Positions 3,296-18,467 are shown, counted from the stretch's first letter. The stretch is 28,267 bases of DNA from an uncultured Rhizobiaceae bacterium (GCA_964398335.1 CAYNOF010000902.1:1-28267); one strand, 5' to 3'. Program-made: numbers and translations. The notes: generated by a model from the letters alone, not told the origin.

Positions 3296-4359
3296 GCTGG
3301 CCGACGCCTCGACGCGGCGATCTGATCCGTGTCGCACGCATCGTCATCGCCGCGGCGATCTCCTTTGGCCTGGCCCACTGGCTGGCGCTGCCGCAGGGCT
3401 ACTGGGCGGTGCTGGCCTCGGTGATCGTGATGCAGGCCAGCGTCGGCGGCTCGTTGAAGGCGACCGGCGAGCAGCTCTTCGGCGCGCTGGCCGGCGGCGT
3501 CTGCGGCGTGGCGGCGGCGTTACTGATCCCGCACACGAGCATCGTCCTGCTCGCCGTCGCGCTGGCCGCGGCGCTGGCGCCGGCGGCGCTGCTGTCGCTG
3601 CTCAACCCGCGCTTCCGCGTGGCGCCCATCGCCGCCATCGTCGTGCTGCTGGGATCGGTCAGCCAGGCCGCCGGCCCGCTGATATCGGCCGCCGAGCGCG
3701 TGGCCGAGATCGCGCTGGGTGGCGGCGTGGCGATCATGGTGTCGCTCTTCATCCTGCCGGCGCGCGCCCATTCGGTGCTGACCTCGATCACCGGCGACAT
3801 GGTGAGCATGCTGGCCGAAGCCGTGCCGTCGCTGTTCGAGGGCGCGACCGGCGATACCGATCAGGACGCGATCGACCGGCGCTTCTTCGCCATGCGCGCC
3901 TCGCTGACCAGGCTCGAGACCGCCACCGACGAGGCGCTGCGCGAACGGCGCAGCCATCTTACCGACGCGCCCGATCCTGAGCCTTTCCAGCGTACGCTTC
4001 TGCGTCTGCGCCACGACCTGGTGATGATCCGCCGCACCATCGTCACGCCGCTGCCCGCCGCGATGATCCCGCGCCTGCGCGCCCCTTTGGCCGAGCTGTC
4101 GAACGAGATCACCGCCTTCATGCGCGCCACCGGCGCGGCGCTGACCGCGCGGCAGATGCCGCCGCCGATCGAGCCCGTCAACAACGCCATCGCGGCCTAC
4201 GACGCGGCAATCGCCGCGTTGCGCCAGGAAGGCGCCACGCGCCTGCTGTCGGTCGACGATGTCGGTCGCCTGTTCGCGCTGGGCTTCGCCTTCGACCAGC
4301 TGCGCGACCACCTCGTCGACCTGATGAACCGCGCAGCGGAGTCGGCCAGGCAGACCTAG
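3292..4359 (+). CDS. FUSC / aromatic acid exporter family membrane protein
   Basis: GTG start overlaps the VWA stop (GTGA). Hydrophobic N-terminal half with LPQGYWAVLASVIVMQ.S.GGS and ER..EI..G motifs, followed by a helical cytoplasmic C-terminus. Confidence 0.85.
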   Translation: MSWPTPRRGDLIRVARIVIAAAISFGLAHWLALPQGYWAVLASVIVMQASVGGSLKATGEQLFGALAGGVCGVAAALLIPHTSIVLLAVALAAALAPAALLSLLNPRFRVAPIAAIVVLLGSVSQAAGPLISAAERVAEIALGGGVAIMVSLFILPARAHSVLTSITGDMVSMLAEAVPSLFEGATGDTDQDAIDRRFFAMRASLTRLETATDEALRERRSHLTDAPDPEPFQRTLLRLRHDLVMIRRTIVTPLPAAMIPRLRAPLAELSNEITAFMRATGAALTARQMPPPIEPVNNAIAAYDAAIAALRQEGATRLLSVDDVGRLFALGFAFDQLRDHLVDLMNRAAESARQT

Positions 4360-13654: not shown

Positions 13655-14488
13655 TCAGACCGTCTTGCGCAGATCGAGATCGGCGAACCGCGGCGCGCGC
13701 TTCTCGCGTGTCGCGGTGAAGGCTTCGGGCATGTCGGCACCGTGGATGAAGGCGGCGTTCCACACGCTCATGTAGTTCAGCGCCTCGTCGACCGAGTGGT
13801 CGCGCGCGTAGTTGATCATCTCCTTGCTGCCGTAGACCGCCAGCGGCGACTTCGCCGCGATGGTGCGGGCGATGCCCATCACGCCCTCGAGCATCTCGGC
13901 CTGGGTGGCGTAGACGGCGTTGACCAGTCCGGCGCGCAACGCCTCCTGGGCGGAGAGCGCGCGGCCGGTATAGGCGAGCTCGCGCACCAGGCCCTGCGGG
14001 ATCAGGTGCGGCAGGCGCTGCAGGGTGCCGACATCGGCGGTCATGCCGAGGTCGATCTCCTTGATGGTGAAGAAGGCGTCGTCGGTGCAGTAGCGCATGT
14101 CGCAGGCCGAGATCATGTCGACGCCGCCGCCGATGCAGCCGCCCTGCACCGCCGCCAGCACTGGTACCCTGACCTTCTCCATCACGCTGAAGGAGTCCTG
14201 GTAGGCCAGCAGGCCGCGGCGGAAACGCTCGCGCCTGCGGGCCGGATCGGCCTCCTCGGCGACGATCGAGCCGAACACCGAGAGGTCCATGCCGGCCGTG
14301 AAATGCGGGCCGGTCGAGGAGATCACCGCCGCGCGTACGTCGGGACACTCCTCGCCGATGGTGACGGCGAAGACCTGGCGGATCTCCTCCCAGAACTCCC
14401 TGACCATGGAATTGCGCTTGTCCGGCCGGTTCAGGCGGATATGGGCGACGTGATCGGCGACGTCGAAATCGAAGGTCGTATAGGCCAC
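13655..14488 (-). CDS. Crotonase family protein, delta3,5-delta2,4-dienoyl-CoA isomerase (ECH1)-like
   Basis: GTG 14488 follows GGGAGGA. HFTAGMDL, GGGVDM, IKEIDLG and ADVGTLQRLP give the Asp/Glu/Asp pattern of ECH1-type enzymes. The track ORF's extra N-terminus runs through the tRNA and is spurious. Confidence 0.88.
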   Translation of the reverse strand: MAYTTFDFDVADHVAHIRLNRPDKRNSMVREFWEEIRQVFAVTIGEECPDVRAAVISSTGPHFTAGMDLSVFGSIVAEEADPARRRERFRRGLLAYQDSFSVMEKVRVPVLAAVQGGCIGGGVDMISACDMRYCTDDAFFTIKEIDLGMTADVGTLQRLPHLIPQGLVRELAYTGRALSAQEALRAGLVNAVYATQAEMLEGVMGIARTIAAKSPLAVYGSKEMINYARDHSVDEALNYMSVWNAAFIHGADMPEAFTATREKRAPRFADLDLRKTV

Positions 14489-14565
14489 GTTGTCCTCCCG
14501 GCCGGGACAGGGTTGAACCGCGGGGGGGTGTATGGCATACCCCCGCCGCCCAGACGAGCTGAGCC

Positions 14566-14640
14566 GCTGCGGTAGCTCAGTGGTAGAGCACACCCTTGGT
14601 AAGGGTGAGGTCGAGAGTTCAATCCTCTCTCGCAGCACCA
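14566..14640 (+). tRNA. tRNA-Thr (anticodon GGT), CCA encoded
   Basis: GCTGCGG acceptor stem pairs with TCGCAGC; D arm AGCTCAGTGGTAGAGC; anticodon arm CACCC-TTGGTAA-GGGTG; T arm GAGAGTTCAATCCTCTC; ends in ACCA. Confidence 0.98.
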
Positions 14641-14644
14641 GTTC

Positions 14645-15019
14645 TCAGCTCGATGGCCCGCCCGTGATGAAGCAGAAGACCTTGCCGTAGGTCTCGCACA
14701 GATGGGTGCCCCGGTCGGGCGTCGGCATGGTGATGATCTTGCTCCTGGGCACCACCAGCCATTCGCGGCCATCCCAGACGCGATAGGCGCCGTCGTCACC
14801 CATATAGGACGGGGCCGGCCGGCAGTCGCCGGTCCGCCCATCGGCCGAGCCGTTGCAGCAGCTCATGCCGGTATCGGGCTGGCGCAGGTCCTTGTACCAG
14901 TCGTGATGCTGGGCGTGACCGTCGCCATGGCGGCCCGAGGGTTGTTGCGCGGCAAGCGCCGCGGGCCACAGGCACAGCATGGCGGCGACGATCGGAATCG
15001 GCTGGCAACGGACGCTCAT
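14645..15019 (-). CDS. Small exported His/Cys-rich hypothetical protein
   Basis: Signal-like N-terminus, then RHGDGHAQHHDWY, SCCN...DCRP...HLC...FCF; GC3-rich codons. Confidence 0.75.
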   Translation of the reverse strand: MSVRCQPIPIVAAMLCLWPAALAAQQPSGRHGDGHAQHHDWYKDLRQPDTGMSCCNGSADGRTGDCRPAPSYMGDDGAYRVWDGREWLVVPRSKIITMPTPDRGTHLCETYGKVFCFITGGPSS

Positions 15020-15088: not shown

Positions 15089-16174
15089 TCAGCTTTCGAG
15101 GGGGTGGTTGGTGAACCGAGCGTTGCCCAGGCCAGTGCCGATGGTCAGCACGCCCCAGCGCTTGACGTCCTTCATCGTCGGCACCGCGCTCAGCCCCTGC
15201 ACGACCGCATCGTTGTGCATCACGATCGCCGGCTCATGGTTGCCGATCTTGGGCAGCTTCAGGCTGCTCGGCAGGTGAAACTCGTCGTCCTCCCAGTTGC
15301 CGGGCAGGTTCTGCCCGCCGCTGGTGATCGCGCCCCTCCCGTCGATCAGTCCGGGACAGGCGATGCCGACAAATGGCGCCAGTTTCACCTTGGCGCGCTC
15401 CGCCCGCTCGATCAGCTCGATGATCATCTTTGTCAGCCGCTTCACCGCTTCCTCGCGCGAGGGCTTGTCGTCGGCGTGCCGCCAGTGGCGCAGCTTCCAC
15501 ACCTTGGCCTTGGCGAGGCTGTCCTTCTTGGTGAGGTTGAGCTGCACGATGCCGGCCCGCATGTTGGTGCCGCCGATGTCGACGGCGAGGATCGCGTCGT
15601 GCCCGGCGAGAACCCACGCCGGCGCGAGTTGCACCGAACCCACCAGGCCCGCCTCGTCGGGGTGGTGCGAGACGGCGTTCAGCTCGATCTCGATGCCGTC
15701 GCCGGCCAGGATCATGCCGGCGCGGCCCATCGCCAGGGTGCCGATGTGGCTGGCGCTCAGGCCACCGCCCACGACGATGCGCTCGGTGCCCTTCCACGAC
15801 TTCAGGCGCAGGAAGCGGCGCACCACGCGCGCCAACTCGCCGGCGAACTCCTCGATTGCGGTATGCACCAGGCCAGCCGCCTTCGGATCGTCGCTGGCCA
15901 GCATCTTGTCCATGTCAGCCTTGCGGATGCGCTCCGTGGGCGTGTCGCCGAACGGATCGTCGCCCTGCTTGCGCACCAGCTCGCGCCAATCGTCGAGAAT
16001 GGCGCGAAAGGCGCGGCCGCTGGCGCGGTCGCCGACGAAGCCTTCCTCGTCGCGCAGTTCCTCGTTGTAGGTGTCGACCGTCACCGCCGGCAGCGTCTTG
16101 GCAGCGTGGCCCAGGATGGGGCCGGGTGACGCACTGTCCTGGGCCAATTCCTTCTTGTCCTTCCTGGGCGACAT
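15089..16174 (-). CDS. ROK/sugar-kinase family protein with circularly permuted motif order
   Basis: GAGGG precedes ATG 16174. Motif order is ASG (~res 51), IVVGGG (133), AGLVG, then DIGGT (199), G..CPG, NDA (321) and TIGTGLG (344) at the extreme C-terminus of 361 aa. Confidence 0.85.
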   Translation of the reverse strand: MSPRKDKKELAQDSASPGPILGHAAKTLPAVTVDTYNEELRDEEGFVGDRASGRAFRAILDDWRELVRKQGDDPFGDTPTERIRKADMDKMLASDDPKAAGLVHTAIEEFAGELARVVRRFLRLKSWKGTERIVVGGGLSASHIGTLAMGRAGMILAGDGIEIELNAVSHHPDEAGLVGSVQLAPAWVLAGHDAILAVDIGGTNMRAGIVQLNLTKKDSLAKAKVWKLRHWRHADDKPSREEAVKRLTKMIIELIERAERAKVKLAPFVGIACPGLIDGRGAITSGGQNLPGNWEDDEFHLPSSLKLPKIGNHEPAIVMHNDAVVQGLSAVPTMKDVKRWGVLTIGTGLGNARFTNHPLES

Positions 16175-16248
16175 GGCCAATCCCTCATGGGCAGTCCAAG
16201 GCAACGGCAAATCGAGGTCCCGGTTGCGCCCCCGCCTCCACGATCCTC

Positions 16249-16275
16249 GGAACCTGCCCCAGCGCGCTCCGTTCC
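16249..16275. promoter_or_regulatory. Candidate bidirectional EcfG/sigmaT/RpoE2 (general stress response) promoter
   Basis: Plus strand: GGAAC (16249-53)-N16-CGTT (16270-73), toward katE. Minus strand: GGAAC (16275-71)-N16-GGTT (16254-51), toward the ROK gene. Confidence 0.7.
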
Positions 16276-16310
16276 CCCGGTGGTCCCGAAGCGTGATCAT
16301 GGAGCGGATA

Positions 16311-18467
16311 ATGGCGAAGACGGGCAAACCAGCGGCAGCGCGGACCTCCGGCCAGGCGACAGAGAAGGATCCCGATGCTGTCGCGACCGAAACGCCCAAG
16401 ACCGAGCAGCTCGGGCCCTTCTCGCAGGCGCCGGGCGAGCGTCTGACCACCAACCAGGGCGTGGCCGTCAGCGACGACCAGAGCTCGCTCAAGGCACACG
16501 CCCGCGGCCCGACGCTGATTGAAGACATCCTGATGCGTGAGAAGATCACGCATTTCGACCACGAGCGCATTCCCGAGCGCGTCGTGCACGCACGCGGCGC
16601 GGCCGCGCATGGCGTGTTCGAGTGCTACGACGATCTCAGCGCTCTCACCATGGCCGCACCGCTGCAGGGCAAGGGGGTACAGACGCCGGTCTTCGTCCGC
16701 TTCTCGACGGTAGCGGGCTCACGCGGCTCGGCCGACACGGCGCGCGACGTGCGCGGCTTCGCGGTGAAATTCTACACGAGCGCGGGCGTGTGGGACCTGG
16801 TGGGCAACAACATGCCGGTGTTCTTCATCCAGGACGCCAACAAGTTCCCCGACCTGATCCACGCGGTGAAGCCGGAGCCCCACCGCGAGATCCCGCAGGC
16901 AGCGTCGGCGCACGACACGTTCTGGGACTTCGTCTCGCTCACGCCGGAGAGCGCGCACATGCTGATGTGGGTGATGAGCGACCGCGCCATCCCGTGCAGC
17001 TTCGCCACCATGGAAGGCTTCGGCGTGCACACCTTCCGCCTGGTCAACGCCAAAGGCGAATGGCGCTTCGTGAAGTTCCACTGGAAGCCACCGAAGGGCG
17101 TGGCTTCGCTGGTATGGGAAGAGGCGCAACTGCTGGCCGGCAAGGATCCCGACTTCAACCGCCGCAACCTCTTCGAGGCGATCGAACGCGGCGACTTTCC
17201 GGAGTGGGAGCTGGGCCTGCAGATCGTCGAGGAGAAGGACGAGCATGCCTTCGACTTCGACCTGCTCGACCCCACCAAGATCATCCCCGAGGAACTCGTG
17301 CCGGTGCGCCGCGTCGGCAGGCTGGTTCTGAACCGCAACCCCGACAATTTCTTCGCCGAGACCGAGCAGGTCGCATTCCACACCGGCCACATCATCCCCG
17401 GCATCGACTTCACCAACGACCCGCTGCTGCAGGGCCGCCTGTTCTCCTACATCGACACGCAATTGCGCCGCGTCGGGCCGAACTTCCACGAGCTGCCGAT
17501 CAACCGCTCGCTCGCGCCGGTCGACAACAATCAGCGCGACGGGATGGGGCGAACGACCATCGACAAGGGCCGCGTCGCCTATTTCCCCAACAGCCTCGCG
17601 CGCGGCTGCCCGATGCACAGGCCCGATGGCGCCGCGGCCTTCCGCTCGCTGATGATCGAGGAGTCCGGCGGCAAGACACGCGCGCGCAGCCCCGGCTTCA
17701 ATGACCATTTCAGCCAGGCGACAATGTTCTGGAACAGCATGAGCGATTGGGAGAAGGACCACATCGCCGCCGCCTTCGCCTTCGAGCTCAACAACGTCGT
17801 CGATGAGGGCGTGCGCAACCGCGTGATGAACGAGATCCTGGTCAACATCAATCCGGAGCTTGCTGCCGTGGTCTCGGCGCAGACCGGTATCGCCGTCGAG
17901 CCGGCCGGCACGCCCGACAATCCCACCCCCTCGGCGCCGACCCCCTCGGGTCCGCTCAAGCGCGATGCGGTGAAGCTTTCCTCGCCGGCGCTCAGCATGG
18001 ACAAGCCGGCTCCGACGGTGAAGGGCCGAAAGGTCGGCATCCTGATCGGGTACGGCGCCGAGGCTGCGGAGCTGACCGCACTCGTCGACACGCTGGGCAC
18101 GTCCGGGATCGTCGCCGAACTGATCGCGCCGACCGCCGGTCTGTTCACCGATGCCAAGGGCAAGACGGTGAAGGTCAACCGCGCGGCGCCCAACGCGCCC
18201 TCGGTGCTTTACGATGCTGCCCTGGTGCCGTCCGGCGTCGGCGCCGCCCTGGCCCAGGCCGGGCTCGCCATGCGCTTTCTCGCAGAGGCCTATCGCCACG
18301 GCAAGCCGATCGCCGTGGCAAATCCGTCCGCCGACCTGTTGAAGGCCTGCAATTTCGACTCCCTCGACGGCGTCGTGGTAGCCGACCCCGGCAAGCTGGC
18401 CTCGGAACTGGTCGGCGCGCTGGCGCAGCATCGCTTTCCCTACCGTCGGAAGCCGAAGAAGGGGTGA
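16311..18467 (+). CDS. katE: Large-subunit monofunctional heme catalase HPII with C-terminal DJ-1/PfpI-like domain
   Basis: FDHERIPERVVHARG (distal His), VRFSTVAG, DLVGNN and LLQGRLFSY (proximal Tyr) motifs, plus a C-terminal flavodoxin-like domain. GGAG precedes ATG 16311. Confidence 0.96.
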   Translation: MAKTGKPAAARTSGQATEKDPDAVATETPKTEQLGPFSQAPGERLTTNQGVAVSDDQSSLKAHARGPTLIEDILMREKITHFDHERIPERVVHARGAAAHGVFECYDDLSALTMAAPLQGKGVQTPVFVRFSTVAGSRGSADTARDVRGFAVKFYTSAGVWDLVGNNMPVFFIQDANKFPDLIHAVKPEPHREIPQAASAHDTFWDFVSLTPESAHMLMWVMSDRAIPCSFATMEGFGVHTFRLVNAKGEWRFVKFHWKPPKGVASLVWEEAQLLAGKDPDFNRRNLFEAIERGDFPEWELGLQIVEEKDEHAFDFDLLDPTKIIPEELVPVRRVGRLVLNRNPDNFFAETEQVAFHTGHIIPGIDFTNDPLLQGRLFSYIDTQLRRVGPNFHELPINRSLAPVDNNQRDGMGRTTIDKGRVAYFPNSLARGCPMHRPDGAAAFRSLMIEESGGKTRARSPGFNDHFSQATMFWNSMSDWEKDHIAAAFAFELNNVVDEGVRNRVMNEILVNINPELAAVVSAQTGIAVEPAGTPDNPTPSAPTPSGPLKRDAVKLSSPALSMDKPAPTVKGRKVGILIGYGAEAAELTALVDTLGTSGIVAELIAPTAGLFTDAKGKTVKVNRAAPNAPSVLYDAALVPSGVGAALAQAGLAMRFLAEAYRHGKPIAVANPSADLLKACNFDSLDGVVVADPGKLASELVGALAQHRFPYRRKPKKG

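Follow-up and report, generated by a model that had tools for sequence, protein, structure and literature searches.

In the 28,267-nt stretch of DNA analysed here (the window), an HPII-type catalase gene, katE, and a ROK-family gene diverge from a 136-bp intergenic region, in which a 27-bp palindrome, GGAAC-N17-GTTCC (16249–16275, both strands; GGAACCTGCCCCAGCGCGCTCCGTTCC), can be read in either direction as a general-stress promoter. The locus raises the question of whether one sequence serves both genes or each gene possesses a promoter of its own. An earlier note on this DNA had taken the palindrome for two fully overlapping, mutually exclusive divergent promoters. The comparison of related loci points instead to two back-to-back promoters of the EcfG type, which probably describe the katE/ROK region better than one shared two-way promoter. 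Such a back-to-back pair is a known and ordinary arrangement, and the nepR-ecfG and phyR loci also contain back-to-back divergent EcfG-type promoters.

The divergent katE and ROK-family genes

The katE gene (16311–18467, plus strand) encodes a large-subunit, HPII-type catalase of 718 aa with the Pfam domains Catalase (E 6e-178), Catalase-rel and Catalase_C and an NCBIfam match to catalase HPII (E 3e-293). Its start is placed at ATG 16311 by the alignment of relatives, in some of which the in-frame ATG 16299 falls out of frame. The Shine-Dalgarno sequence GGAG is located at 16301–16304 on the plus strand; in most relatives it reads GGAGCG and lies 6–9 nt before ATGGCGAAG, with L109 and L001 differing. 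The ROK-family gene (15089–16174, minus strand; ATG 16174) encodes a sugar-kinase-like protein of 361 aa with an ASKHA fold, identified by its translation and by a match to Pfam PF00480 (ROK) that is limited to residues 196–356. The start of the protein, MSPRKDKK, is kept in relatives. The sequence GAGGGA (16181–16186, minus strand), read as the Shine-Dalgarno element, is positioned 6 nt before the ATG, and a purine-rich equivalent, mostly GAGGGA or GGAGG, precedes the gene in most, not all, relatives.

A conserved ORF of about 123 aa without a Pfam match (14645–15019, minus strand) is invariably found behind the ROK-family gene in the same orientation, 65–70 nt downstream in L107–L115 and the window, with 236 nt in L109, and is probably co-transcribed with it. 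In L107, this ORF is followed by a trehalose-6-phosphate synthase gene (Glyco_transf_20). A tRNA-Thr (GGT) gene (14566–14640, plus strand) is situated in the window between this ORF (124 aa) and an enoyl-CoA hydratase gene. The 5' end of the longest hydratase ORF (13655–14638) overlaps the tRNA, so the true hydratase start must be further in.

Metagenome-assembled genomes of Reyranellaceae are the source of the closest proteins, and the DNA runs containing the locus are exclusively soil metagenomes. Across Reyranellaceae, the ROK-like protein is more than 60% identical (homologues P0001–P0120), and some genomes carry two or three separate ROK-like loci, for example Reyranella soli, on three contigs. 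Genome and metagenome scans with the ROK protein, together with look-ups of close relatives, yielded 115 related loci. The divergent katE–ROK pair is kept in 13 of them, 10 of which are distinct, with the ROK protein 79–91% identical; in all remaining loci the ROK homologue has other neighbours. A plasmid origin was rejected, given that plasmids match only the coding part of the catalase, at 73–79% identity; these matches served as outgroup katE promoters. The RNA runs searched with katE returned no match, and the one metatranscriptome that matched the ROK and intergenic stretch contains nothing but short divergent fragments of the conserved coding parts, from other organisms, none of them over 16154–16523.

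Two outward-facing motifs in the intergenic region

The palindrome consists of two arms, GGAAC (16249–16253) and GTTCC (16271–16275), separated by a 17-nt spacer, and the earlier note had given its sequence and coordinates between the divergent genes exactly. On the plus strand, the proposed katE promoter (16249–16273) comprises the -35 element GGAAC (16249–16253), a spacer of 16 nt and the -10 element CGTT (16270–16273). On the minus strand, the same dyad reads GGAAC-N16-GGTT, or GGAACG-N15-GGTT. The consensus of EcfG/RpoE2 promoters is GGAAC-N15-17-CGTT (PMC4914127, PMC7083833, PMC6599016), katC of S. meliloti is controlled by RpoE2 (PMC8226930), and two catalases are EcfG-regulated in S. 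melonis (PMC6599016). The published work bears out the consensus of GGAAC-N16/17-CGTT and the control of katC, on which the earlier note had relied.

The plus-strand reading is the sole strict match to GGAAC-N16/17-CGTT in the window, although by itself such a match is not significant in 28 kb (0.32 expected; at least one match in 27 of 100 shuffles). The looser dyad GNAAC-N17-GTTNC occurs twice in the window, with both copies inside the 136-bp intergenic region and 0.16 expected. GGAACC and CGTT do not vary among the 10 distinct loci linked to katE, where the spacer is N16 or N17 and its sequence varies with a per-column majority of mostly 0.3–0.7. This conservation in relatives indicates that the katE motif is functional. 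Similar motifs are found upstream of katE homologues elsewhere, namely GGAAC-N16-CGTTCG, GCAAC-N16-CGTTGC and GCAAC-N17-CGTTCA in other Reyranella, GGAACC-N16-CGTTGG in Paracoccus, GCAAC-N17-CGTTGA in Sphingomonas hankookensis and a comparable motif in Aminobacter; the best upstream motif of the Sinorhizobium katE (katC) homologues is GGAAC-N16-GGTTT. Having the GGAAC -35 element, CGTT after 16–17 nt and a short-leader placement, the plus reading of 16249–16275 is very probably an EcfG-type general-stress promoter of katE, and this part of the earlier proposal holds, with boxes invariant in all 10 loci, the second rank in the matrix search described below and the related motifs at katE homologues.

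In S. meliloti, the 5' end of GGAAC lies 32–36 nt before the transcription start site (PMC4914127), and this rule places the predicted katE start at about 16280–16283; a start near 16281 would leave a leader of about 30 nt to ATG 16311. The leaders of about 30 nt for katE and about 70 nt for the ROK gene that had been derived from the palindrome agree with ATG 16311 and ATG 16174, respectively. No sigma-70-like promoter was found in 16000–16450 and no Rfam match in 16100–16400, and the repeat finder returned no longer inverted repeat in the region.

A second dyad of 27 bp, GCAAC-N17-GTTGC (dyad A, 16201–16227), is located 48 bp to the left of the reported one (hereafter dyad B) and had been missed in the earlier note. 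Its minus reading, cGCAACcg...cCGTTg, constitutes the proposed ROK promoter (16203–16227, minus strand), with the -35 element GCAAC at 16227–16223, a spacer of N16 and the -10 element CGTT at 16206–16203. The minus strand at 16227–16203 therefore contains every element of an EcfG promoter, that is, GGAAC or GCAAC, N16–17 and CGTT. All 10 distinct relatives, L001 included, have both boxes, GCAAC and CGTT, unchanged. The predicted ROK start, at about 16194–16197, would lie upstream of the Shine-Dalgarno sequence GAGGGA (16186–16181) and give a leader of about 22 nt. GCAAC is an established -35 box: in the S. granuli general-stress regulon it is the second most frequent after GGAAC, and both EcfG paralogues of that species drive in vitro transcription from a GCAAC/CGTT promoter (PMC7083833), while the EcfG targets of S. 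melonis include high-scoring GCAACC motifs (PMC6599016). At its left end, dyad A has the pentamer GCAAC in 4 of the 10 relatives and CCAAC in 6. Its plus reading is thus not conserved as a promoter, which makes dyad A a one-way promoter, palindromic by happenstance in this genome.

By contrast with both outward promoters, per-column identity in the 10 loci drops to about 50% in spacers and flanks. Between the two -35 elements, a box CACGATC (16239–16245) stands out, with a column conservation of 0.8–0.9 in the 10 relatives versus about 0.5 in the columns beside it.

The four readings of the two dyads were compared with a position matrix built from 85 distinct promoters of ROK genes that do not belong to the katE clade, and all window positions on both strands were scored. 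The matrix promoters had been picked by G[GC]AAC-N17/18-GTT only, leaving the base before GTT free. Dyad A in the minus direction, towards ROK, obtains 19.8 bits and ranks first of 112,888 positions, followed by dyad B in the plus direction, towards katE, with 16.7 bits (rank 2). The best other site in the window, which defines the background maximum, has 12.5 bits (rank 3), and dyad A in the plus direction has 10.3 bits (rank 9). Dyad B in the minus direction, which the earlier note had assigned to ROK, lies inside the background with 7.2 bits, 20 other window sites scoring higher (rank 21), on a matrix that was derived from a single gene family's promoters and may score a GGTT -10 element, functional in other Alphaproteobacteria, too low. 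For dyad B, then, the katE orientation rises above the background and the reverse orientation does not (16.7 versus 7.2 bits, with the background reaching 12.5). The reverse reading (minus strand, 16275–16251) has GGTT in place of CGTT, and the base before GTT is C in 83 and G in 2 of the 85 matrix promoters; likewise, G follows GGAAC in 2 of 32. Against a ROK promoter within the palindrome stand these figures and the fact that the ROK gene has an invariant, better placed promoter of its own, the best matrix match in the window. The proposal of fully overlapping, mutually exclusive promoters is accordingly not supported, and GGAAC-N16-GGTT is at most a weak candidate for a promoter of the ROK gene.

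The favoured arrangement thus comprises P_katE and P_rok as separate, outward-facing ECF-sigma promoters, probably of the EcfG (ECF15) general-stress type, with their -35 elements 21 bp apart and their predicted start sites about 86 bp apart. Release of the general-stress sigma factor, presumably through the PhyR–NepR partner switch, would turn both genes on together, each from its own promoter. Both the boxes and the spacer of 16–17 nt, in addition to the distance of less than 100 nt to the start, resemble the EcfG/RpoE2/SigT (ECF15) promoters of S. meliloti katC and the S. melonis catalases, and an HPII catalase is a typical target of these regulons. In contrast to the reported EcfG systems, EcfG dependence is a prediction here and no sigma gene was seen in the window: Pfam scans of 20 ORFs in the 28-kb window found no PhyR, NepR or ECF sigma factor. 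Since phyR, nepR and ecfG are absent from the window, the sigma factor is assigned from the motif and the gene content, and the presence of PhyR–NepR–EcfG in Reyranellaceae is assumed from its general distribution in Alphaproteobacteria. The Ku–katE pair of Aminobacter also has two separate outward motifs, one per gene, but these are about 112 bp apart, compared with 21 bp between the -35 elements here, where each motif is in addition a 5+5 dyad in this genome. The EcfG regulon papers searched report no ROK-family target, and the literature searched contains no published stress-response work on Reyranellaceae, an uncultured-rich soil family. With this analysis, the predicted general-stress regulon of the family gains an HPII catalase together with an ASKHA-fold, ROK-like gene that had not been linked to it before.

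Two promoter forms upstream of ROK homologues

Among the 111 loci with enough sequence upstream of the ROK homologue, 100 show a strict match to G[GC]AAC-N16/17-CGTT in the ROK orientation, where shuffles predict 0.25 loci. The median distance of the motif upstream of conserved codon H22 is 120 nt, and it is present irrespective of the neighbouring gene. In many loci without katE, a second outward motif exists on the opposite strand, 20–45 bp upstream of the ROK motif. The back-to-back partners of ROK homologues in other Reyranella are a bacterial topoisomerase IB or a Zn-ribbon/Peptidase_Mx protein (L005, L025 and L067; L024, L049, L055 and L060), and in the majority of these cases the partner has an outward motif of the GCAAC or GGAAC type to itself. 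In S. melonis, EcfG also regulates topoisomerase IB and Ku (PMC6599016). Back-to-back EcfG-type promoters are thus a recurrent layout around the ROK-like gene. In L106, the two -35 boxes are separated by an inserted nested inverted-repeat element of 156 bp (3784–3939), which lies precisely between them and disrupts neither motif; its 36-nt arms are 86% complementary, its inner 16-nt arms are 100% complementary, and it is absent from the window and 122 other loci. Because the insertion touches neither of them, the proposed katE and ROK promoters are separable modules. If the palindrome of this locus served ROK in reverse, the same insertion would stretch the reverse leader to more than 200 nt.

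Two alternating forms, GGAACT(TT)-N16/17-CGTTC and GCAACC-N16-CGTTG, occupy the same position before ROK homologues. In 92 distinct promoters, the second base of the -35 element is strongly associated with the base after CGTT, to which it is mostly complementary (GG..C 19, GG..G 8, GC..C 3, GC..G 53; Fisher p = 9e-10, a value that carries no correction for shared ancestry). The base after AAC also tracks the -35 form, being T for GGAAC and C for GCAAC. The two forms could reflect the specificity of sigma paralogues or simply two inherited promoter lineages. If different ECF sigma factors or EcfG paralogues read GGAAC..CGTTC and GCAACC..CGTTG, katE and the ROK gene would not be strictly co-regulated. 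The linkage of the second -35 base to the bases after CGTT and after AAC speaks for such a division, as does the existence of several EcfG paralogues in many Alphaproteobacteria (PMC3892343, PMC4814048, PMC7083833). However, the association, uncorrected for shared ancestry, may be explained by ROK paralogue groups, EcfG1 and EcfG2 of S. granuli both transcribed GGAAC and GCAAC promoters with one consensus (PMC7083833), and P_katE itself is a mixed form, its GGAAC being followed by C. A division of labour between two sigma factors is thus conceivable but unlikely, and one general-stress sigma factor for both outward promoters is preferred.

The palindrome and its reverse reading

The AAC of the -35 element and the GTT of the -10 element are reverse-complementary and 17 bp apart; hence, two extra bases suffice for a 5+5 dyad, and [G/C]C after CGTT is the condition for a promoter reading on both strands. 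A both-strand reading, G[GC]AAC-N-NGTT, is found in 19 of the 92 distinct ROK promoters (21%), close to the roughly 23% estimated from a GC content of 68%. Palindromic extension is therefore not above chance in this promoter class. Furthermore, the dyad is not linked to a divergent gene: the katE promoter of L125, GCAAC-N16-CGTTGC, is a dyad with a co-directional upstream gene, and L126 has a divergent neighbour, yet no palindrome. As the core of the EcfG consensus is self-complementary, a motif in two directions is expected by chance in about one-fifth of cases, and such a reading should not count as evidence of bidirectional use.

The earlier note had suggested examining whether the dyad is conserved in katE/ROK pairs. 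At the 10 loci, GGAACC and CGTT are invariant, and all 10 members of the katE clade share the [C/G]C with which the dyad is completed (columns 0.9 and 1.0), but within a longer block, CCATG, whose conservation of 0.9, 1.0, 0.8, 0.9 and 0.8 then falls to about 0.5 and extends beyond the dyad. The constraint on CC is thus real, though it does not appear specific to a reverse -35 element, since the next three bases are conserved too. In L001, the dyad reads GGAAC...GTTGC, so that the reverse -35 element is GCAAC, not GGAAC.

An inverted repeat, TCCATG or TCCAT followed after about 10–12 nt by CATGGA or ATGGA, is present in L002, L106, L107, L108, L110 and L114 (aligned to 16273–16305). In most relatives the TCCATG repeat overlaps the CC and the end of the -10 element as well as the katE Shine-Dalgarno sequence; the window does not have it. 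This TCCATG...CATGGA repeat may be an operator or a DNA or RNA hairpin. A hairpin in the 5' untranslated region as the cause of the conserved CC was rejected, its 5' arm being upstream of the predicted start and the window lacking the repeat.

The reading in which EcfG binds the single dyad at 16249–16275 both ways, with a katE start at about 16281 and a ROK start at about 16244 that exclude one another, has to be weighed against these observations. For ROK, this reverse promoter could then be the only one or serve as a distal P2 located upstream from P_rok. Its -35 element is a perfect GGAAC with an N16 spacer, G[G/C]AAC is retained there by all 10 clade members, and the conserved [C/G]C constraint could include reverse use. 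Moreover, GGTT is a frequent and working -10 element in S. granuli, where departures from CGTT nevertheless lowered transcription (PMC7083833), and GGTT is found in high-scoring S. melonis motifs and in the best motif upstream of the Sinorhizobium katC homologues. However, the hexamer GGAACG, which the reverse reading contains, is the one hexamer without a peak linked to transcription starts in S. meliloti (PMC4914127), the conservation past CGTT reaches beyond the dyad, and the symmetry occurs at the chance rate in promoters with and without divergent genes. With the invariant promoter of the ROK gene itself and the background-level score, these points make a single dyad serving both genes doubtful, and reverse initiation from it is unlikely even as a minor event. 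The reverse reading is best regarded as a weak, poorly supported candidate promoter, at which weak initiation is conceivable because GGTT is a working -10 variant in Sphingopyxis granuli (PMC7083833).

Symmetric sigma-70 promoters do fire both ways (bioRxiv 10.1101/2020.01.31.928960), and the bidirectional sigma-70 promoters of Warman et al. (bioRxiv 10.1101/2020.01.31.928960; PMC12825309) likewise involve symmetry and mutually exclusive binding. There, one TATAAT-like -10 element overlaps itself and the starts are 7–25 bp apart, mostly 18. In the reported dyad, unlike the sigma-70 case, the -35 element of one reading would overlap the -10 element of the other, the sigma factor would be of the ECF family, and about 37 bp would separate the starts. 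The literature searched yielded no example of an ECF-sigma bidirectional promoter. It is improbable that an ECF holoenzyme binds GGAAC/GTTCC-type dyads in both orientations with divergent starts about 37 bp apart. If it did, an ECF counterpart of the sigma-70 bidirectional promoters would exist in which the -35 element of one reading is the -10 element of the other, and about one-fifth of the EcfG-type promoters in these genomes would potentially be two-way; a demonstration of reverse initiation would carry the symmetry-based concept of bidirectional promoters beyond sigma-70 to the ECF sigma factors.

Perfect 6+6 dyads, GCAACG-N15-CGTTGC, were observed in L029 (about 3851–3877), L033, L037 and L038, and also in L025 and L061. 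They match the strict motif on both strands and are conserved in one group of ROK paralogues, in which no other ECF-type motif precedes the ROK gene; the dyad lies some 130 nt ahead of the likely start. The ORF upstream of the dyad differs between L029 and L033, and none was found for L037 and L038. The dyads of L029, L033, L037 and L038 are the best natural candidates for two-way ECF initiation.

Some ROK-family proteins are repressors, and two GNAAC-N17-GTTNC dyads 48 bp apart in one intergenic region, together with the 6+6 dyads conserved upstream of one paralogue group, might be taken for operators of a dimeric factor, either a shared repressor or the ROK-family protein itself. Such an operator role is highly improbable. 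Conservation is asymmetric in a way that favours promoters: GTT is almost always preceded by C, whereas the symmetrical place behind AAC may be C, T or G. In addition, only 4 of the 10 relatives have GCAAC as the left half of dyad A, the motifs are placed and spaced with respect to the start codons like -35 and -10 elements, and the ROK-like protein models as an ASKHA kinase fold, with no helix-turn-helix detected. As a dyad-binding repressor, the protein was considered and found unlikely, though not disproved, the PDB profile and fold searches giving ASKHA matches only and no DNA-binding domain.

The predicted structure of the ROK-like protein (pLDDT 78) adopts the ASKHA kinase fold, and its fold and PDB profile matches include sugar kinase, hexokinase, N-acetylmannosamine (ManNAc) kinase, exopolyphosphatase (PPX) and Hsp70. 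The fold search yields no more than partial sequential matches, with TM values of 0.3–0.4. Residues 196–356 are equivalent to what is the N-terminal half in an ordinary ROK kinase, and residues of about 100–190 (VVGGGLSASHIG ... DEAGLVGSVQLA) resemble, by eye, the usual C-terminal half, an order that suggests a circularly permuted ASKHA kinase.
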